Made by a program: the position numbers and the translations under genes | Notes under the pieces: model-generated | Database searches by the model: none | What the model was told of the DNA's origin: nothing | The model's input: only the letters and a program-made list of their open reading frames with translations | Shown: one piece after another, positions 1,356 to 24,295 of the stretch | Numbering within the stretch: the stretch's first letter is position 1 | How the letters are laid out: every line of letters starts with the position of its first letter | UHGV virus genome: UHGV-0096129 | Strand: one strand, 5' to 3' | DNA: 31,048 bases | Origin: a virus

Positions 1356-1627
1356 GTATTCGTATTGAAATTGGCGAACGTTATGTCGTTACCAGTGACA
1401 GCTTTCAGTTTATTCTCCACGAGAAAAAGAGAGCGGAAAGCGGTAAAAACGCCGGTCAGGAATGGCTGGCGGTGGTTGGTTATTATCCGAAATTAAGCCA
1501 GCTCGTTTCCGGCCTGATGCATCACGATATTCTGACCGGAAGCGCAAAGTCTTTTGCTGATTTAAACGCGCAGGTTGAGCAACTCAGCAGGCGTTGTTCA
1601 GAGGCTTTTGGCTCATATGGCCGTTAA
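1352..1627 (+). CDS. Small early protein, P2 orf83-position hypothetical
   Basis: 91-aa ORF coupled to the upstream gene (overlap 1352-1355). Its 3' end overlaps the gpA start at 1617. Confidence 0.6.
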   Translation: MSIRIEIGERYVVTSDSFQFILHEKKRAESGKNAGQEWLAVVGYYPKLSQLVSGLMHHDILTGSAKSFADLNAQVEQLSRRCSEAFGSYGR

Positions 1628-3902
1628 AGCCTCCGGGCGTTTTGTCCCTCCGTCAGCATTTGCTGCAGGCACCGGTAAGGCGTTTACCGGTGCTTATGCA
1701 TGGAACGCGCCACGCGAGGCCGTCGGGCGCGAAAGACCCCTTACACGTGACGAGATGCGTCAGGTGCAAGGTGTTTTATCCACGATTAACCGCCTGCCTT
1801 ACTTTTTGCGCTCGCTGTTTACTTCACGCTATGACTACATCCGGCGCAATAAAAGCCCGGTGCACGGGTTTTATTTCCTCACATCCACTTTTCAGCGTCG
1901 TTTATGGCCGCGCATTGAGCGTGTGAATCAGCGCCATGAAATGAACACCGACGCATCGTTACTGTTTCTGGCAGAGCGTGACCACTATGCGCGCCTGCCG
2001 GGAATGAATGACAAGGAGCTGAAAAAGTTTGCCGCCCGTATCTCATCGCAGCTTTTCATGATGTATGAGGAACTCAGCGATGCCTGGGTGGATGCGCATG
2101 GCGAAAAAGAATCACTGTTTACGGATGAGGCTCAGGCTCACCTGTATGGTCATGTTGCTGGCGCTGCACGTGCTTTCAATATTTCCCCGCTCTACTGGAA
2201 AAAATACCGTAAAGGACAGATAACCACGAGGCAGGCATATTCTGCCATTGCCCGCCTGTTTAACGATGAGTGGTGGACTCATCAGCTTAAAGGCCAGCGT
2301 ATGCGCTGGCATGAGGCGTTACTGATTGCTGTCGGGGAGGTCAATAAAGACCGTTCTCCTTATGCCAGTAAACATGCCATTCGTGATGTGCGTGCGCGCC
2401 GCCAGGCAAATCTGGAATTTCTTAAATCGTGTGACCTTGAAAACAGGGAAACCGGCGAGCGCATCGACCTTATCAGTAAGGTGATGGGCAGTATTTCTAA
2501 TCCTGAAATTCGCCGGATGGAGCTGATGAACACCATTGCCGGTATTGAACGTTACGCCGCCGCAGAGGGTGATGTGGGGATGTTTATCACGCTGACCGCG
2601 CCGTCAAAGTATCACCCGACACGTCAGGTCGGAAAAGGCGAAAGTAAAACCGTTCAGCTTAATCACGGCTGGAACGATGAGGCATTTAATCCAAAGGATG
2701 CGCAGCGTTATCTCTGCCGTATCTGGAGCCTGATGCGTACGGCATTCAAGGATAATGATTTACAGGTCTACGGTTTGCGTGTCGTCGAGCCACACCACGA
2801 CGGAACGCCGCACTGGCATATGATGCTTTTTTGTAATCCACGCCAGCGTAACCAGATTATCGAAATCATGCGTCGCTATGCGCTCAAAGAGGATGGCGAC
2901 GAAAGAGGAGCCGCGCGAAACCGTTTTCAGGCAAAGCACCTTAACCGGGGCGGTGCTGCGGGATATATCGCGAAATACATTTCAAAAAATATCGACGGCT
3001 ATGCACTGGATGGTCAGCTCGATAACGATACCGGTAAGCCGCTTAAAGATACTGCCGCGGCTGTTACCGCATGGGCGTCAACGTGGCGCATCCCGCAATT
3101 TAAAACGGTTGGACTGCCGACAATGGGGGCTTACCGTGAACTACGCAAATTGCCTCGCGGCGTCAGTATTGCTGATGAGTTTGACGAACGCGTCGAGGCT
3201 GCTCGCGCTGCCGCAGACAGTGGTGATTTTGCGTTGTATATCAGCGCGCAGGGTGGGGCAAATGTCCCGCGCGATTGTCAGACTGTCAGGGTTGCCCGTA
3301 GCCCGTCGGATGACGTTAACGAGTACGAGGAAGAAGTCGAGAGAGTGGTCGGCATTTACGCGCCGCATCTCGGCGCGCGTCATATTCATATCACCAGAAC
3401 GACGGACTGGCGCATTGTGCCGAAAGTTCCGCTCGTTGAGCCTTTGACTTTAAAAAGCGGCATCGCCGCGCCTCGGAGTCCTGTCAATAACTGTGGAAAG
3501 CTCACCGGTGGTGATACTTCGTTACCGGCTCCCACACCTTCTGAGCACGCCGCAGCAGTGCTTAATCTGGTTGATGACGGTGTTATTGAATGGAATGAAC
3601 CGGAGGTCGTGAGGGCGCTCAGGGGAGCATTAAAACACGGCCTGAAAACACCAAATCGTCAACAAAGAAACGGAAGCCCGTTAAAAACACATGAAATTGC
3701 ACCGTCGGCCAGACTGACCCGGTCGGAACGAATGCAAATCACCCGTATCCGCGTTGACCTTGCTCAGAACGGTATCAGGCCTCAGCGATGGGAGCTTGAG
3801 GCGCTGGCGCGTGGAGCGACCGTAAATTATGACGGGAAAAAATTCACGTATCCGGTCGCTGATGAGTGGCCGGGATTCTCAACAGTAATGGAGTGGACAT
3901 AA
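1617..3902 (+). CDS. A: Replication initiation endonuclease gpA (rolling-circle HUH nickase)
   Basis: From the ATG at 1617 the product is 761 aa, the recalled P2 A length. It has the HUH-type metal motif PHWHMMLF and the catalytic tyrosine motif GYIAKYISKN. In P2 the replication origin lies inside the 3' part of this gene; I cannot pin down the nick site here. Confidence 0.95.
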   Translation: MAVKASGRFVPPSAFAAGTGKAFTGAYAWNAPREAVGRERPLTRDEMRQVQGVLSTINRLPYFLRSLFTSRYDYIRRNKSPVHGFYFLTSTFQRRLWPRIERVNQRHEMNTDASLLFLAERDHYARLPGMNDKELKKFAARISSQLFMMYEELSDAWVDAHGEKESLFTDEAQAHLYGHVAGAARAFNISPLYWKKYRKGQITTRQAYSAIARLFNDEWWTHQLKGQRMRWHEALLIAVGEVNKDRSPYASKHAIRDVRARRQANLEFLKSCDLENRETGERIDLISKVMGSISNPEIRRMELMNTIAGIERYAAAEGDVGMFITLTAPSKYHPTRQVGKGESKTVQLNHGWNDEAFNPKDAQRYLCRIWSLMRTAFKDNDLQVYGLRVVEPHHDGTPHWHMMLFCNPRQRNQIIEIMRRYALKEDGDERGAARNRFQAKHLNRGGAAGYIAKYISKNIDGYALDGQLDNDTGKPLKDTAAAVTAWASTWRIPQFKTVGLPTMGAYRELRKLPRGVSIADEFDERVEAARAAADSGDFALYISAQGGANVPRDCQTVRVARSPSDDVNEYEEEVERVVGIYAPHLGARHIHITRTTDWRIVPKVPLVEPLTLKSGIAAPRSPVNNCGKLTGGDTSLPAPTPSEHAAAVLNLVDDGVIEWNEPEVVRALRGALKHGLKTPNRQQRNGSPLKTHEIAPSARLTRSERMQITRIRVDLAQNGIRPQRWELEALARGATVNYDGKKFTYPVADEWPGFSTVMEWT

Positions 3903-4354
3903 TGGCAAAAATTCACGAGGTAAAGCTGCACGCAAAATATTTTGACCTTGTGCTGGAAGGAAAGAAACGCGCAGAGTTTCGGAAAAATGACCGTAATTAT
4001 GAGCGCGGGGACACGTTGATTTTGCATGAATGGGTGCAGGGTGTGTATACGGGGCGAAAGGTTGAAGCCCAGATAACAGATGTTACTGACCTGTCAGACT
4101 GGCTGGAAGATTATGTCTTGCTAAGTATTGAGCGGCTTAATACAGGCGCATGTGAGATTGTGAACTGGAAAGAACTTAGTGAGCGTGGTCTGGTATTCAG
4201 AATTAATCATGAAATTATGCATCAGCTCGGCCTTGCTGTTATGTATGAACCAGAGACGGGGATGTCTGGCGGGGCAATGGTTGCCACGGATGGAGCATGG
4301 AACTATTCAGATGAACAGATTGAGCGTGCACAGCAAAACGGGTGGCTTGGATAA
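3902..4354 (+). CDS. ASCH/DUF3850-like domain protein with a C-terminal extension
   Basis: The start ATG at 3902 overlaps the gpA stop (TAATG). The N-terminus KIHEVKLHAKYFDLVLEGKKRAEFRKNDRNYERGDTLILHEW looks like the DUF3850/ASCH beta-barrel signature seen in phage early regions. The C-terminal ~75 aa are unassigned. Confidence 0.65.
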   Translation: MAKIHEVKLHAKYFDLVLEGKKRAEFRKNDRNYERGDTLILHEWVQGVYTGRKVEAQITDVTDLSDWLEDYVLLSIERLNTGACEIVNWKELSERGLVFRINHEIMHQLGLAVMYEPETGMSGGAMVATDGAWNYSDEQIERAQQNGWLG

Positions 4355-4560: not shown

Positions 4561-4789
4561 AGAACGCCGCCAGTCGTGAAACTTGTTTTCAGGGCTGGCG
4601 GGGTTGAACAACGAGCGAAGCGAGGCGTTAGTTGACAGTAATATTTTTACTGCGTTGGTGCTGTTTTTTGACGGTTGAAAGGAGTTAGCTCGGAGAGCTA
4701 AAGCTAACAACTTACAAATATTCAAAAGTAAGCTTCCTGTTGCTAACATAAGGTCGATTTTTTATGTGGATGATGCAAAAAGGATAGCT

Positions 4790-5521
4790 ATGGATACTGT
4801 AATCGCTTTTCTATCACTCGCTTTTTTCGTTGCTTTTTTCATCGGATTAATCAAACCATCACTGGTGCGGATGCCAAACCGTAAAAGTGCAAGTGCGGTT
4901 TATCTCGGAGGAGGTTTTGTATTGAGCATAATTGGTTCAATACTCTATCCAACAGAAAAAAGCCAGCCAGTTGCTAAAACTGAAACATCAACCGTTGCAG
5001 AACACCAAGTCCAAAAAAAATTCGAATATGGTGGAAAAACACTCAAGGAATATCGGAACGAGCCAAAGAAAACTCGACACGATATTGTGAATAGTTACAT
5101 TGATTTTAAGGAAGTGCCAGTCACCGCATCAGATGCATTTTATGCCTGCATGAGTGAATATACTTTTACCAAAGATGATGAGTTGAAACTCGGTGATGTT
5201 CTTGGATGGTGCTTTAATGATTATGAAAAAGATCCGAAATCACTAAACAATAAAATCAACCTTGATACATTTCAGAGTAATTTTAGCGGTTGGGATGGTT
5301 CTTATCGACCATTGGAAAAGCTAATTAAAGAGAATATGAACGATGATTCATCTTATAAACATGTGTCAACAGTGTATCATTTGGTTTTGAATAAAGATCC
5401 GCACGCCATTGTGAAAACAACATTTCGCGGAACTAATGCTTATGGCGGAGTGGTGAAACAGACCGTTGCGGCGCGCGTCAATGTTCGAACTGGTGAGGTA
5501 ACTTCAATAATTGATAACTAA
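4790..5521 (+). CDS. Two-TM membrane protein with a ~190-aa predicted periplasmic C-terminal domain; function unknown
   Basis: ORF 4766-5521. I prefer the ATG at 4790 (AGGA at 4781-4784, 5-nt spacer), giving 243 aa. There are two hydrophobic helices (VIAFLSLAFFVAFFIGLI and AVYLGGGFVLSIIGSILY). They are separated by a basic loop (KPSLVRMPNRKSAS), which under the positive-inside rule places the C-terminal domain outside the cytoplasm. Confidence 0.7.
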   Translation: MDTVIAFLSLAFFVAFFIGLIKPSLVRMPNRKSASAVYLGGGFVLSIIGSILYPTEKSQPVAKTETSTVAEHQVQKKFEYGGKTLKEYRNEPKKTRHDIVNSYIDFKEVPVTASDAFYACMSEYTFTKDDELKLGDVLGWCFNDYEKDPKSLNNKINLDTFQSNFSGWDGSYRPLEKLIKENMNDDSSYKHVSTVYHLVLNKDPHAIVKTTFRGTNAYGGVVKQTVAARVNVRTGEVTSIIDN

Positions 5522-5545
5522 AGTGAAGGGCTAGGCCATGTTATG

Positions 5546-5574
5546 TTTAAGCCATAATATGGCTTTTTTATGAT
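5546..5574 (+). promoter_or_regulatory. Candidate sigma70 promoter for the 198-aa gene
   Basis: TTTAAG (5546-5551), a 17-nt spacer, then TATGAT (5569-5574), about 30 nt upstream of the ATG at 5604. AT-rich context makes chance matches likely. Confidence 0.25.
5550..5569 (+). terminator. Weak rho-independent terminator candidate after the membrane-protein gene
   Basis: AGCCATAATATGGCT (5-7 bp stem) is followed directly by a T6 run ending at 5569, 29 nt after the stop codon. The stem is short and AT-rich. Confidence 0.35.
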
Positions 5575-5603
5575 TTGGGTAAATTGATAAGGAGTCGATT
5601 TAA

Positions 5604-6200
5604 ATGAATTCAAAAAAAAGGAATAAATACCTCAAGTTAATGTTTGAGTGTAGAAAAAGAATTGAAACGCTACATGATTTAGCATCCGGACATACAGGAG
5701 GACTTTATCTTCAAGTTTTAATAGAAATAGAAGCGTTACAACTCAGAAAGTTATTGGAGCTTATCGCATTTTCATCGTTAATTTCATATGAGGAATCCTA
5801 TAAGACTGTTGCGAAGAGTATTGATGGTGTATGGAAAGCCAAGCGTATTATAAGTGAGTTAGAAAAAATAAATCCAAATTTTTACCCGTTACCTGTATCA
5901 TCATTTACCAATGACGGGTGGAAGAAATTGAAAGGTGGATATTTAACAAAAAAACAATTTATTGCACTGTATGATGAATGTTCAACTCATATTCATGTTA
6001 GAAACCCATACAGGATAAGCGAAAACTCGCTGGCTTTTCATAGAAAAGTACCTTCATACTTAGAGAGAATTGAATGTTTATTATCTAAACATATTGTTTC
6101 ACTTGTAGATGATAGGGAGTTTCTTTTTGTAGAGGTACCTCATTTTGAAGATTCGGCTACCCCTCTAAGAATTAGATGTTTAATTAAAAATAGAGGGTAA
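5604..6200 (+). CDS. Hypothetical cytoplasmic protein, 198 aa, no recognised domain
   Basis: Strong RBS (AAGGAG at 5589-5594, 9-nt spacer). AT-rich codon usage like its neighbours. Predicted mostly helical, with no TM segment or signal peptide. Confidence 0.75.
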   Translation: MNSKKRNKYLKLMFECRKRIETLHDLASGHTGGLYLQVLIEIEALQLRKLLELIAFSSLISYEESYKTVAKSIDGVWKAKRIISELEKINPNFYPLPVSSFTNDGWKKLKGGYLTKKQFIALYDECSTHIHVRNPYRISENSLAFHRKVPSYLERIECLLSKHIVSLVDDREFLFVEVPHFEDSATPLRIRCLIKNRG

Positions 6201-6446
6201 ATTTTTATTATCCCTTAATGATAACTTACATTAGTTATGATAAAAGTTTGATAACGTCAGTAGTGCTGGAGCTGTCCTTCAGCACTGATGGAGTTGAACA
6301 ATGAGCACTTCTGGACGTTATATTAATACTGATATAGTTAGTGGTTTTATTCTAAATTATTAGCGTAGCGCCGAAACTCACTATTTACAATGGTGGGGTA
6401 ACGCTGAAAGAACCGGAGCGTAGATATCTTTTTTTACTGAAAAATT

Positions 6447-6468
6447 GTGGTCAATATTGCTTGACCAC
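6447..6468 (-). terminator. Candidate terminator hairpin downstream of the FRG gene
   Basis: Perfect 8-bp stem GTGGTCAA / TTGACCAC with a 6-nt loop. On the minus strand it is followed by AATTTT, 4 nt, then an A-run. It lies about 150 nt beyond the minus-strand stop at 6617. The U-tract is short. Confidence 0.3.
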
Positions 6469-6616
6469 TATACAGCGTCAGTTCAAACTACAATTAATAA
6501 AGTTAAGGTTCATAGCCTTTTTGAAGGGTACGTATCCAAGAGGCCTGTGCTCACTATGTGGTAAAGAGTCAAAATATCGTTATGTCTGATTCTTACGCAC
6601 AATTGTAATATTTCTT

Positions 6617-7972
6617 TTAAATGTCAGACATATATTTCTTTGCGATTTCAGAAGCTGTCTTTTCTATACTTGGATAAACAGTGCTCTCAGTAATGTTCAA
6701 TTGTGCAAGTTCTTTCAAGATTATTTTTTTATTAACTATGTCAACTCTGTCAAGAGGAAAGTCTTCTGTTGTCTCTGGGAGTACTGCCTCGTGACCAAAT
6801 AATAGAAATGCGCCAGACTGTGATTGAATGCGTTCATTATTTATTCTGGCGCGGATGAATAGTATTTTCCGAAGATCATGCAGGTCTATATTTTTTTTAA
6901 AATATGGTTTTTCAGCTTGAATATGATCTAAAAGTTTATTGAGTAGTTCTTTTGCGTGAGATTTGTCGTTTTCAATTAAGCTTTTTGATATAGTGCTTAA
7001 GATATTGTGTGGCATAAATGCCAGATTGGCTATACAGCTAACAGTATCAGAGTCAAAATATTTGATATTTTTTCTTTCTGTAGGAAACGAGATGACTTGT
7101 CCGGTGTCTTCAGGATCTTCACAGCATGCAAAATATAAAGCAATTAGCGGGTTGGATGTAATATCTAGCAATCTTGTAGGTAAACCATAATGCTGCATTC
7201 TAACTAATTTATCGATCGTAAAATTATCAGATATAAATTCATTAGGCCTTGCTGACAGAATTTCACGAACCATAGATGATTCTGAATCAAGGTGCTTATG
7301 AGTCCCGTTATCATGTTTCCGGAAAAGAGATGGGATAAGTTCATATTTATTTCGTGAATGTCCTCTATAAAAAATTTCAGAGTTTGAATTGTTGGATTTT
7401 TCTATAAAACTGATATATTCCTTTAAGCTCTTTATTTTTCTTATTTTTGATGTTCTTTTGATGTTTCCAATTTTGGAGGTGTTAGAGAGAATTTTTTCAG
7501 TTGTATCGTTTTTGGTTTTATTTAGCTCAAGTTTTAGCAGTGTTTCTCTTAATTTTTTATCTTTAACTGCCCAGTGGGTTCTGCTAAGACCATAAGCACC
7601 TAAGTCTAATATTTCTTTATATTGTTTTATTTCGGGGTTCTTGATTTCGCCAAAATCATGAACGATTTCAAAGTGATAACAAACATCATCATTGTCTATG
7701 TGTAAGTTGCCGACTTTTCCAAGTCTTACTCTTAAATATCTATTTTTGTCACCGTCTTTATCGTATATTTCAGTCATGAAAAGAACAGGTAGCTTAGATA
7801 GAGCGTCTAAAGTTATAGGGCTTACTGGTGTTAATTTTTTATAAAGTAAGGATGGTGTACCTTCTAGCATTCGGGAAAGAGAGAAACTATCTTCCCCATT
7901 TTTAATATTAGGATCCATAGATGGCCATCTATCAAACACAGAGGGCTCACCCCCGATAATGAGATTAAACAT
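6617..7972 (-). CDS. FRG-domain protein with an uncharacterised ~185-aa N-terminal domain
   Basis: 451 aa, with GGAG 7 nt upstream of the ATG. FRG-family signatures are present: FYRGHSRNKYELIPSLFR (res 201-218), MQHYGLPTRLLDITSNPLIALYFAC (res 259-283) and NERIQSQSGAFLLF (res 379-392). A Lys/Arg-rich linker (res ~165-185) precedes the domain. Confidence 0.85.
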   Translation of the reverse strand: MFNLIIGGEPSVFDRWPSMDPNIKNGEDSFSLSRMLEGTPSLLYKKLTPVSPITLDALSKLPVLFMTEIYDKDGDKNRYLRVRLGKVGNLHIDNDDVCYHFEIVHDFGEIKNPEIKQYKEILDLGAYGLSRTHWAVKDKKLRETLLKLELNKTKNDTTEKILSNTSKIGNIKRTSKIRKIKSLKEYISFIEKSNNSNSEIFYRGHSRNKYELIPSLFRKHDNGTHKHLDSESSMVREILSARPNEFISDNFTIDKLVRMQHYGLPTRLLDITSNPLIALYFACCEDPEDTGQVISFPTERKNIKYFDSDTVSCIANLAFMPHNILSTISKSLIENDKSHAKELLNKLLDHIQAEKPYFKKNIDLHDLRKILFIRARINNERIQSQSGAFLLFGHEAVLPETTEDFPLDRVDIVNKKIILKELAQLNITESTVYPSIEKTASEIAKKYMSDI

Positions 7973-8230
7973 TCTAACTCCTTTTTACTTAAGAAATGAC
8001 ATTGATTGTCTTAATGTTGTCGTAAGGGCGATGTAGATTGCCAGATCTGATTCAGCACTACCAGAGAAAACTGTCAGTCTATGTTTGACTCTGTGGGAAG
8101 GTAGTTTTGCGTACATTATTGCATCAAATTGCATTTGCTATTATTTGGCCTTTCATACAAATGAGCTCAAAACTGACGTGCTTTCGCCTGGCTTATACAT
8201 TTGCATCAAAACCGACCCATGAAGCGGGCG

Positions 8231-8249
8231 GGCGAGGCGGGGAAAGCAC
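8231..8249. other. cos: cos cohesive-end sequence (P2-type, 19 nt)
   Basis: GGCGAGGCGGGGAAAGCAC matches the P2 cohesive-end sequence I recall. It is correctly placed just beyond the portal gene Q. Confidence 0.85.
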
Positions 8250-9453: not shown

Positions 9454-11225
9454 CAGTAAAACTCCAGAATGGTGGATGTCAGCGGGGTGCTGATACCGGC
9501 GGTGAGTGGCTCATTTAACAGGGCGTGCATGGTCGCCCAGGCGAGGTCGGCGTGGCTGGCTTCCTCGCTGCGGCTGGCCTCATAGGTGGCGCTGCGTCCG
9601 CTGCTGGTCATGGTCTTGCGGATAGCCATAAACGAGCTGGTGATGTCGGTGGCGCTGACGTCATATTCCAGACAGCCACGGCGGATAACGTCTTTTGCCT
9701 TGAGCACCATTGCGGTTTTCATTTCCGGCGTGTAGCGGATATCGCGCGCGGCGGGATAGAACGAGCGCACGAGCTGGAACACGCCGACACCGAGGCCGGT
9801 GGCATCAATCCCGATGTATTCAACGTTATATTTTTCGGTGAGTTTGCGGATGGATTCCGCCTGGGTGGCAAAGTCCATGCCTTTCCACTGGTGACGCTCA
9901 AGTATTCTGAATTTGCCACCGGCCACCACCGGCGGTGCCAGCACCACGCATCCGGCGCTGTCGCCACGGTGTGACGGGTCGTAACCAATCCATACCGGGC
10001 GGGAGCCGAACGGATTGGCGGCAAACGGCGCATAGTCTTCCCATTCTTCCAGCGTGTCGACCATGCAGCGTTGCAGCTCCTCGAACGGGAACACCGACGC
10101 CTTGTCGTCAACAAATTCACACATGAACAGGTTTTTAAAATCGTCGGCGCTGTTTTCACGTTTGAGCTGCTCAATGTCGAACAGCGTGCAGCCACCTTTC
10201 AGGGCGTCCTCAATGGTGACAATCTGCCGCCACTGGCCGTCCGCACAGAGAAGCCCACCGGCAAGGGCGTTATGACTGACGTCGATTTCCACGCGTTCGG
10301 CGGCGCTGGCGCGTCCCCGGTTGAACAGTTCACCTGACCAGAACGGGTAGGCGTCGTGCGCCAGCGTGGACGGGGTGGAGAAATAGGTCGAGCGCAGGTG
10401 ACTCTGTGAGGCCATACCTGATGCCACCTTACGCAGTACCTGAAAATTCGGGATCCAGAAAATCTCGTCGACGTACAGGTCGCCGTTATGGCTCTGTGCG
10501 GTGTTGGAGTTGGTGCCGAGAAAAATCAGTTTTGCGCCGTTATTGCCCAGGACAATCGGGTCACCGGTCAGGTCAATGTCAACCAGACGGGCAAAGGCGA
10601 TGATGTATTCACGGAACACATACGCCTGCGTTTTACTGGCCGACAGAAAAATCTGGTTATGACCGGTTTTCAGGGCGCGCAGCAGCGCCTCGCGGGAAAA
10701 ATAAAACGTCGCGCCAATCTGGCGGGATTTCAGGATATCGCGGATGCGGTGCTCAAGCCCGGCGCGATACCAGTGCAACTGATAGTCGAAAGACTGCTCA
10801 AAGAAAATCTGCTCCAGCTTTTCGATGGCCTCGTCACTGAAAAAATTCTTTTTCGGTTTGCGCCGCCCGCCTTTGTTGCGGTTAGCGACGTTCGGATTAA
10901 GGTCTGCCTCGTTGCCGGTCTGGCTGTAACGGTTGACCCGTGCCAGTCGTTCAATCTGGCGTCCGAGCAGGTCAATTTCCTTGAAGTCACCGCCGGTTTT
11001 CTGCGGTTTGATGATGAGCTGGGTCAGCCGCGCTTCCAGACTCATTTCGACACGGCTGATGGGGGCAACGCTGTCCCAGCCGTCGCGCTGTTTCCAGCTC
11101 TGCACCGTCGGGCGTTTCATCTGCAACATGGCGGCAATCTGCGGCACGGAAAACCCCTGCCAGTACAGCAGCGCCGCCTGACGACGCGGGTCGTGTAAAA
11201 GAGTGGTGTCTGTGGTGATGGTCAT
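9453..11225 (-). CDS. P: Terminase large subunit gpP
   Basis: From the ATG at 11225 (GAGG 6 nt upstream) the product is 590 aa, the recalled P2 P length. It has an N-terminal HTH-like region and an ATPase/nuclease-sized body. Confidence 0.95.
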   Translation of the reverse strand: MTITTDTTLLHDPRRQAALLYWQGFSVPQIAAMLQMKRPTVQSWKQRDGWDSVAPISRVEMSLEARLTQLIIKPQKTGGDFKEIDLLGRQIERLARVNRYSQTGNEADLNPNVANRNKGGRRKPKKNFFSDEAIEKLEQIFFEQSFDYQLHWYRAGLEHRIRDILKSRQIGATFYFSREALLRALKTGHNQIFLSASKTQAYVFREYIIAFARLVDIDLTGDPIVLGNNGAKLIFLGTNSNTAQSHNGDLYVDEIFWIPNFQVLRKVASGMASQSHLRSTYFSTPSTLAHDAYPFWSGELFNRGRASAAERVEIDVSHNALAGGLLCADGQWRQIVTIEDALKGGCTLFDIEQLKRENSADDFKNLFMCEFVDDKASVFPFEELQRCMVDTLEEWEDYAPFAANPFGSRPVWIGYDPSHRGDSAGCVVLAPPVVAGGKFRILERHQWKGMDFATQAESIRKLTEKYNVEYIGIDATGLGVGVFQLVRSFYPAARDIRYTPEMKTAMVLKAKDVIRRGCLEYDVSATDITSSFMAIRKTMTSSGRSATYEASRSEEASHADLAWATMHALLNEPLTAGISTPLTSTILEFY

Positions 11226-23515: not shown

Positions 23516-24295
23516 TTAAAATATCCAACTGATAAATCCACCTGAATACTTTTCACTAATTTTGATTGCATAAAGATCATGAAGAGTTATAAATAAATCA
23601 TTATCTTCTTTGAAAATTAACTCCTCATATTCTGCCATTATCAAATTATGCTGTGTTGTTAGTTTAGATATGTTATCTATTTCACTGGCAAGCATGGATT
23701 TGTTTACATTGGTGTGTGGATCCATGGCAATATATTTCCGCATCAATGGAATTAGTTGATCAGGGTCTATATTTTTTGCATTTTCCTTTGCTTTTTTTTG
23801 TCTTTCTGAATAGATGGAGTTAATTGTGTCAGTGTGTTTTTTCGCCAGTCTCTTAAACTCTGGATATGAACCAGTAACTAATGCAAGCTCTTCGTACTTA
23901 AGGAATAAATCGATATTGCATTTTTTTACCGTCATTTCAAGATCTTCAACTCTTTTTTTTAACTCTTCATTTGTTTTAATAAGAGACATCGGGAGAACTT
24001 CATAATGTTGTCCTAATTCTGAATCAGGGCTCATTGCCATATGTACTATTTCATTATACATGAGCTGATAAGAAGCAGATAACTCTCCATACTTTAGAAA
24101 TAGTTCATTATGTGAAGATGAACAAGAACTTTGTAATTTCATCATTGGCCTAAAGTAATCCTTTATAAACTCCTCCTGAAGATCTTGGTCTTTTTTGTAG
24201 CTCTCTAGGATTCCAGCAAAAAGAAATGACCCTAAAGATATAGAGATTATGGATATTAGCAATTGACTAAGGAATGATTGTGTTTCATTACTCAT
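23516..24295 (-). CDS. Membrane-anchored helical protein, 259 aa, unknown function (cargo at the P2 Z/fun position)
   Basis: AGGA 8 nt upstream of the ATG. One N-terminal TM helix (FLSQLLISIISISLGSFLFAGIL), then a Lys/Glu-rich helical region. Very AT-rich (about 25% G+C in line 23581-23640 by hand count). It is antisense to the flanking late operons. Confidence 0.75.
   Translation of the reverse strand: MSNETQSFLSQLLISIISISLGSFLFAGILESYKKDQDLQEEFIKDYFRPMMKLQSSCSSSHNELFLKYGELSASYQLMYNEIVHMAMSPDSELGQHYEVLPMSLIKTNEELKKRVEDLEMTVKKCNIDLFLKYEELALVTGSYPEFKRLAKKHTDTINSIYSERQKKAKENAKNIDPDQLIPLMRKYIAMDPHTNVNKSMLASEIDNISKLTTQHNLIMAEYEELIFKEDNDLFITLHDLYAIKISEKYSGGFISWIF

Follow-up and report, generated by a model that had tools for sequence, protein, structure and literature searches.

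In the PUA-Cal-HAD system, a PUA-like sensor fused to Calcineurin-CE responds to N6-methyl-deoxyadenosine monophosphate (m6-dAMP) arising from phage-induced chromosome degradation and brings about abortive infection, and the PUA-like family to which this sensor belongs is also found fused to TIR, DrHyd and HEPN domains (bioRxiv 10.64898/2026.01.15.699771). The Aravind group has placed the Frg domain in the ADP-ribosyltransferase (ART) superfamily by sequence analysis and regards it as a potential antiviral effector and possible NADase (PMC9503650). The interval between gpA and gpQ of P2-like phages is a published hotspot with defence cargo (PMC9122126; PMC9519451), and Table S5A of Rousset et al. 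lists arrangements of the type 'hypothetical + FRG + RVT_1', which were not among the systems tested there. Here we analyse a gene of the UHGV virus genome UHGV-0096129. The stretch of 31,048 nucleotides (nt) examined, hereafter the window, is a P2-like Escherichia coli prophage (best match NZ_CP075663, 99.5% identity), and its open reading frame (ORF) listing contains, on the minus strand at 6617–7972, a coding sequence of 451 amino acids (aa) with an ATG start. By analogy, PUA-Cal-HAD would be the closest mechanistic precedent for the encoded FRG protein.

The coding sequence is complete, with its stop codon at 6617–6619, and comprises a PUA-like domain at its N terminus, a basic linker and a C-terminal FRG/ART-like domain. 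We infer a defence function from this architecture and its context: very likely, this is a putative anti-phage defence gene of an already listed candidate family, and the protein appears to be a single-protein sensor–effector candidate that joins an uncharacterised sensor family to an uncharacterised effector. An earlier note on this DNA had proposed just such a single-gene sensor-plus-effector defence protein, and the computational checks described below support the proposal. The defence idea is less new than the note supposed, as the hotspot, the PADLOC candidate PDC-S15 and the ART prediction all came before it; because the family is already PDC-S15 and already stands in the published table of P2-hotspot cargo, defence candidacy as such is not new. 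A literature search found no prior recognition of the N-terminal part as a PUA-like module, of the breadth of its fusions or of a sensor–effector reading, and the Koonin-lab survey of EVE domains does not mention FRG or TIR fusions (PMC7641849).

The FRG half is recognized directly by existing models. Pfam FRG (PF08867) matches aa 199–288 (7109–7378, minus strand; E=8.9e-23), with the [FY]RG motif present, and the score of 81.5 bits against a cutoff of 25 puts the match far beyond chance. All three motifs that had been called unambiguous were located: FYRGH at aa 201–205, QHYGLPTRLLD at 260–270 and NERIQSQSGAF at 379–389. The Pfam model covers only the first part of the effector domain. Fourteen PDC-S15 models of PADLOC match this half, the best of them (PDLC04936; 326 bits, E=5.7e-98) aligning aa 169–448 with positions 13–297 of the 300 in the profile, and the functional domain is therefore about 250 aa long rather than the 90 aa of Pfam. 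We place the extended FRG domain, a proposed ART-fold NAD+-utilizing effector, at about aa 196–451 (6620–7387, minus strand). Its invariant residues are R203, G204, H205, Q260, H261, R267, D270, N274, S308, D309, N379, R381, S384, Q385 and G387; the glutamines given earlier as Q384 and Q386 are in fact Q383 and Q385, and it is S384 and Q385 that are invariant. The profile phrog_4962 (function unknown) matches the protein over its full length, and an NCBIfam search of the protein returned nothing meaningful.

A structure model of the protein gave weak matches to ART folds: ArtA (score 4.9), heat-labile enterotoxin (4.7), pertussis S1 (4.7), RES toxin (4.4), Scabin (4.1), CARDS (4.0) and TccC3 (4.0). 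These matches belong to the FRG half, because they are gone when the N-terminal domain is searched alone. In the model, R203 and H205 lie at a strand end, T272-S273-N274 follows the next core strand and S384-Q385-x-G387 precedes a later strand. This arrangement, mapped by order and without superposition, may parallel the R / S-T-S / [QE]-x-E layout of ARTs, and the model also places a large helical insert at aa 309–354 of the domain. Transferase ARTs generally need a catalytic Glu; in some ART-fold NAD+ glycohydrolases, TNT among them, the catalytic position typically holds a Gln. Assignment of FRG to the ART superfamily is plausible.

The N-terminal domain had been described as a novel domain of about 185 aa. 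A separate domain is indeed present, and its length divides into about 150 aa of folded domain (aa 1–150; 7523–7972, minus strand), the proposed ligand sensor, and a linker of about 45 aa (aa 151–195; 7388–7522, minus strand) that is modelled at lower confidence. This linker is rich in K and R, as the earlier note had said, with 12 K/R against 5 D/E in aa 148–197. The domain includes GAYGLSRTHWAVKDKKL at aa 125–141, and its invariant residues are R34, E37, T39, E68, R131, H133, W134 and K137. At the sequence level the domain is unrecognized, as claimed; its fold is not new, the model being a predicted PUA-like β-barrel of the EVE/YTH/ASCH type. The closest structural matches are THYN1 bound to DNA with 5-methylcytosine (7.1), YTH domains (6.7–5.4), the modification-dependent nuclease VcaM4I (6.5) and ASCH (6.1), followed by the N-terminal domains of archaeal McrB proteins (4.9 and 4.6). 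The enzyme PD-T4-3, specific for 5-hydroxymethylcytosine, appears at rank 22 with 4.4, just under the PUA-like group of matches. The top matches all fall within one nucleic-acid/nucleotide-binding clan. Together they suggest that the modelled N-terminal half adopts the PUA-like reader pseudo-barrel fold and is a probable nucleotide- or modified-base-sensing domain. When the domain alone was scanned with PADLOC no model matched, and alignment of its profile by hhalign with the window's own ASCH/DUF3850 protein (3866–4354) gave a probability of 0.2%, that is, no relationship.

The identity of these structural relatives raises an alternative, in which the PUA-like domain would direct FRG to modified phage DNA or RNA (bearing, for example, hydroxymethylcytosine (hmC), glucosyl-hmC or m6A) and FRG would ADP-ribosylate the nucleic acid itself, blocking replication or translation directly and without NAD+ depletion. 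THYN1, VcaM4I, the McrB N-terminal domains and PD-T4-3 read modified bases in polymers, and several such readers are fused to restriction nucleases; the ART matches include the DNA-modifying toxin Scabin, and the K/R-rich linker could contact nucleic acid. ART-fold defence enzymes are also described as acting on nucleic acids, DarT on single-stranded DNA and CmdT on mRNA (cited within PMC9519451). We nonetheless regard this alternative as unlikely. The protein appears to have Q385 in place of the Glu that transferase ARTs generally need, and the same N-terminal domain is fused elsewhere to effectors that do not act on polynucleotides, namely TIR NADases, a PNP nucleosidase, protein kinases and a KAP NTPase. 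A general sensor fits these fusions better than a substrate-targeting module does.

The fusions came from a profile of the N-terminal domain (A3) that was built from 27 fragments and searched among 1.84 billion proteins. At E<=1e-3 it retrieved 884 cluster representatives, of which 223 also passed E<=1e-10; their lengths run from about 130 to 1061 aa. A Pfam scan of 67 long relatives found the domain joined to FRG in 17, to CAP12/Pycsar-type TIR in 16, to Abi_C (HEPN) in six, to protein kinases in five, to TIR_2 in four, to TIR in three and to PNP_UDP_1 in two, with single fusions to SEFIR, KAP NTPase, Schlafen AlbA_2, DncV-like nucleotidyltransferase, EAD2, AbiJ_NTD3 and FGE-sulfatase. Composite architectures include AbiJ_NTD3 + N-domain + TIR, N-domain + PNP + kinase, EAD2 + N-domain + kinase and N-domain + KAP NTPase. 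W134, within an RTHW motif, is invariant across all fusion types, and R34, E37, T39, E68, R131 and H133 are nearly so. Throughout, the N-domain stands directly upstream of the effector, and FRG therefore holds the place that the NADase TIR holds in sister architectures. Judged from domain order, such placement marks a domain of conflict systems that serves as sensor or regulatory input. The profile searches suggested earlier for both halves thus return PDC-S15/PF08867 for the FRG half and an independent module upstream of immune effectors for the N-terminal half, and the suggested structure prediction returns a PUA-like fold for the latter and weak ART/NADase-like matches for the former.

Three relatives of about 260 aa (P0174, P0197 and P0239) join the N-domain to a C-terminal domain with the motif NPNVFYE-GIAHTLGR. 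This C-terminal domain has no Pfam match and is matched in PADLOC by the 'Effector TIR' model PDLC00733 only; from its sequence, it may be a TIR-like or deoxyribohydrolase-like NADase family absent from Pfam.

One further architecture bears on the nature of the ligand. On metagenome contig ERZ25070530 (L102, 6001–8283), with transposases on either side, a single polypeptide of 760 aa joins a DncV-like CD-NTase, the N-domain and FRG. It could be a fused CBASS-like single-protein system or, being seen on one contig only, a fusion created by gene calling or assembly. Another possibility is a defence protein with a different trigger or chemistry, in which the N-domain senses a phage protein, or only oligomerizes or autoinhibits, or in which FRG is a nuclease or other hydrolase. 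The confinement of the top N-domain matches to a single nucleic-acid/nucleotide-binding clan speaks against a protein trigger, and two further features point to a nucleotide ligand: the fusion of CD-NTase + N-domain + FRG, and the frequency with which the N-domain is paired with TIR domains of the cyclic-nucleotide type. Against a different chemistry stands the independent published sequence analysis that puts FRG in the ART superfamily (PMC9503650). We consider this possibility improbable.

The gene lies where P2 carries its exclusion gene old. In P2 (NC_001895) the order is A, Orf91, tin and then old, which is the first gene inside cosR and lies on the minus strand. The window has A (1575–3902), a homolog of Orf91/DUF3850 (3866–4354), plus-strand ORFs of 251 and 198 aa, the FRG gene on the minus strand, cos, portal gene Q and terminase gene P (minus strand). 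The 19-nt cohesive-end sequence GGCGAGGCGGGGAAAGCAC at 8231–8249 (plus strand) is identical to the annotated cosR of P2. From this identity and the gene order it follows that the FRG gene, 258 bp from cos, matches P2 old in both position and orientation, as the earlier note had stated for a lone minus-strand gene next to cos. Its GC content is 0.335, compared with 0.531 for A and 0.558 for Q–P, and the cargo island as a whole has 33–35% GC compared with 53–56% for the phage. When a 4-kb query was compared with 5,426 complete E. coli genomes, the flanks matched in 2,155 and the entire cassette in only seven; the FRG gene is thus dispensable, variable cargo. Like published hotspot cargo, it lies between A and Q, adjoins cos and varies among phages.

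Homologs are widespread on mobile elements. The same two-domain architecture occurs at 42–74% identity in Enterobacterales, Aeromonas, Sphingomonas and Rhizobiales; 305 genomic stretches of species-representative genomes encode a relative, more than 3,900 relatives received a score, and one is present in about 2% of complete E. coli genomes. Full-length homologs are present in 218 plasmid records, mostly of conjugative plasmids, and, within the phage collection, in temperate phages only. A moron is an accessory gene inserted among a phage's own genes, and a 60%-identical homolog forms an opposite-strand moron between the replication genes and hok/ninG/rusA/Q, on the cI-side strand, in lambdoid prophages and phage Tritos. 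A Klebsiella prophage has a homolog at its end, with a colicin gene and DUF6602 alongside. An integrase island of Sinorhizobium holds one together with radical-SAM, MqsA, CAP12-TIR and methylase genes, and an integrase island of Proteus holds one with Fic and DUF87. In further prophages of the P2 type the same slot, next to gpQ, is taken by a 48%-identical homolog adjoining a retron-like reverse transcriptase.

The cargo beside this 48%-identical homolog (L002–L006, about 9474–10900) comprises an RVT_1 reverse transcriptase of 316–325 aa and ORFs of 106 and 51 aa. This cargo, probably a retron-type system, agrees with the 'hypothetical + FRG + RVT_1' entry in Table S5A of Rousset et al.

Recurrent neighbours of the homologs are integrases, C5/N6 methylases, type IIG and type III restriction enzymes, IetAS, RES toxins and helicases. 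The survey of homolog neighbourhoods called for earlier thus finds, descriptively, prophage hotspots, conjugative plasmids and integrase islands, alongside restriction–modification, IetAS, RES and TIR genes. There is no conserved partner gene, in that no Pfam family recurs more than three times among 138 neighbours at 35 loci. Nor is there a cyclase gene in the hotspot or among the homolog neighbours, and the pairing of cyclase with sensor–effector that marks CBASS and Pycsar was not found. These contexts also bear on whether the gene is defence cargo at all: about a quarter of P2 hotspot cargo is non-defence, partition systems and cytolethal distending toxin being examples (PMC9122126); proteins with an ART fold are frequently toxins, and homologs are common on conjugative plasmids. 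The gene could on these grounds be a lysogenic-conversion toxin, an addiction module, a virulence factor or a counter-defence factor, for instance one destroying host NAD-derived immune signals. We consider such a role very unlikely. The protein has no signal peptide, secretion context, antitoxin partner or conserved neighbour; in integrase islands its homologs have restriction–modification, IetAS, TIR and RES genes beside them; the effectors of the sister architectures are typical of immunity and the family is a PADLOC candidate; and virulent phages, in which counter-defence genes abound, lack the family.

As the best-supported reading we propose a stand-alone, abortive-infection-type protein in which the PUA-like domain binds a nucleic-acid-derived cue and thereby activates an NAD+-consuming ART-fold FRG domain. 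In the lysogen, the prophage would express the protein from the slot near cos where P2 has old. Upon infection, the N-terminal domain of about 150 aa would bind a cue, which could be a modified base within phage DNA or RNA or else a nucleotide in free and possibly modified form, and would thereby free the C-terminal FRG domain or cause it to assemble. This domain, as a divergent enzyme of the ADP-ribosyltransferase fold, would then consume NAD+ as an NADase, and the infected cell would be stopped before a competing phage completes its cycle. What kind of ligand is bound, the chemistry on NAD+ and the abortive end of the infection are inferences, and we put the probability of this proposal at roughly 0.45.

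Several observations weigh against it. The searchable literature yielded no experimental activity or phenotype for this gene or any FRG protein; the earlier note's statement that FRG has no established activity thus holds for experiment, whereas a prediction of ART-superfamily membership and NADase activity does exist (PMC9503650). At the position expected for the catalytic Glu of transferase ARTs the protein has Q385, which fits some NADases and could also mean a different chemistry. Foldseek against the Protein Data Bank (PDB) found nothing at E<0.1, the weak matches being to Lon-N and YTH only and none to an ART, and profiles of the whole protein and of the N-domain gave 0 matches at E<=10 against PDB sequences. 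The Pfam EVE, YTH and ASCH models likewise gave no match to the N-domain at E<=10. The neighbourhood survey, which covered 138 immediate neighbours at 35 loci from different species with a simple ORF caller and no control set, is descriptive and gives no formal enrichment. A simple sigma-70 scan of the minus strand upstream of the gene found 0 candidates.

A more far-reaching version of the proposal concerns the N-domain itself, as a large unnamed PUA-like family of 'danger-nucleotide' sensors (about 900 clusters at 50% identity) gating at least six unrelated classes of effector (FRG, HEPN, PNP, kinase and TIR of two types), with FRG as a new ligand-activated NADase clade. We offer this version tentatively and consider it rather doubtful in its full extent. 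Were it true, the ligand would reveal a new infection cue together with the first biochemical functions for FRG and for the sensor family. The N-domain is the more valuable lead, in that its cue would explain the trigger of orphan single-gene candidates forming parts of PDC-S15, PDC-S35 and PDC-S66 and would extend the recent finding of PUA-like domains as sensors of nucleotide danger signals. If FRG is an NADase, it would add another fold to NAD+-depletion immunity beside TIR, SIR2 and DUF4062. FRG is widespread without a demonstrated activity, and this gene is a compact, single-gene and naturally E. coli-borne example for coliphage assays. A defence gene in the old slot will not surprise a specialist; it is still an entry point to FRG and to a sensor family of about 900 clusters.

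A strong Shine–Dalgarno sequence, AAGGAG, lies at 7978–7983 (minus strand), 5 nt upstream of the ATG. Promoter-like sites upstream of the gene are fewer than in shuffled sequence, and when the upstream regions of the FRG gene and P2 old were aligned, only about 50 bp adjoining cos proved conserved. On the other side, a non-coding gap of 416 bp (6201–6616) separates the gene from the 198-aa ORF, which is convergent with it. Nothing lies in the gap but a 42-aa ORF (6461–6589) and a terminator-like hairpin (6447–6468, minus strand); the hairpin, about 150 nt 3′ of the stop codon, is consistent with a monocistronic FRG gene. Rfam at its gathering threshold gave 0 matches over the whole window, hence no retron or other known non-coding RNA stands beside the gene. 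Repeats around the gene are short and at chance level only.

The two plus-strand ORFs on the far side of this gap form a separate piece of hotspot cargo (4766–6200), consisting of the 251-aa ORF at 4766–5521 (phrog_3403) and the 198-aa ORF at 5604–6200 (phrog_13799). We considered them as partners of FRG and rejected them: Salmonella P2/186-like prophages have the pair but no FRG, and neither ORF accompanies the FRG homologs at other loci. Both are low in GC, the 251-aa product has a hydrophobic N terminus, and the 198-aa family also occurs outside prophages in Pseudomonas, Shewanella and Marinobacter. The two genes appear to make up a cargo module of their own, as yet uncharacterised. Immediately upstream of the hotspot, the Orf91 homolog (3866–4354, plus strand) carries a DUF3850/ASCH domain followed by DUF7415 and is a second protein of the PUA-like clan, here in the conserved phage backbone. 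Another low-GC island (0.318) at 23516–24295 (minus strand) holds a 259-aa ORF, with the tail-fibre genes on one side and the sheath gene on the other. The position is P2's Z/fun locus, a second defence hotspot according to Vassallo et al.; the ORF has no Pfam or PADLOC match, and Yersinia phage L-413C encodes a 99.6%-identical protein.

Set beside described systems, the FRG protein resembles P2 Old in position only: slot, strand and proximity to cos are shared. Old is an OLD-family ATPase–TOPRIM nuclease, annotated in P2 as an AAA-family ATPase, whereas Pfam finds FRG alone in the protein described here, with no ATPase or TOPRIM domain and no sequence or domain relation to P2 Old. PUA-Cal-HAD differs in that its sensor belongs to another PUA-like family, marked by VWWGWWxKxxExxP and TPxYY where the present family has SRxLExT, LPxLFMxE and RTHWAVK; its effector is a phosphoesterase rather than FRG, there is no HAD partner here, and none of the 67 long N-domain relatives is fused to Calcineurin. 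From the ART toxins and NADases (RES and TNT/Tne types) and from DarT and CmdT the protein is set apart by the lack of a significant sequence or Foldseek match, by its helical insert and by having no antitoxin.

PADLOC PDC-S15 comes closer, as a single gene without a conserved partner whose models match the FRG half. It is, however, a computational candidate only; its models do not contain the N-terminal domain, and others among them set FRG in different flanking regions. The sensor–TIR proteins (PDC-S35 and PDC-S66, with Cap12- and PycTIR-type TIR domains) complete the comparison. FRG replaces TIR in the protein described here, no cyclase gene lies in the window, and the PDC-S35 models match only the TIR part of the N-domain sister proteins. 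These sister proteins join the same N-domain to TIR domains of this kind, which implies a shared input and an equivalent, NAD+-directed output.

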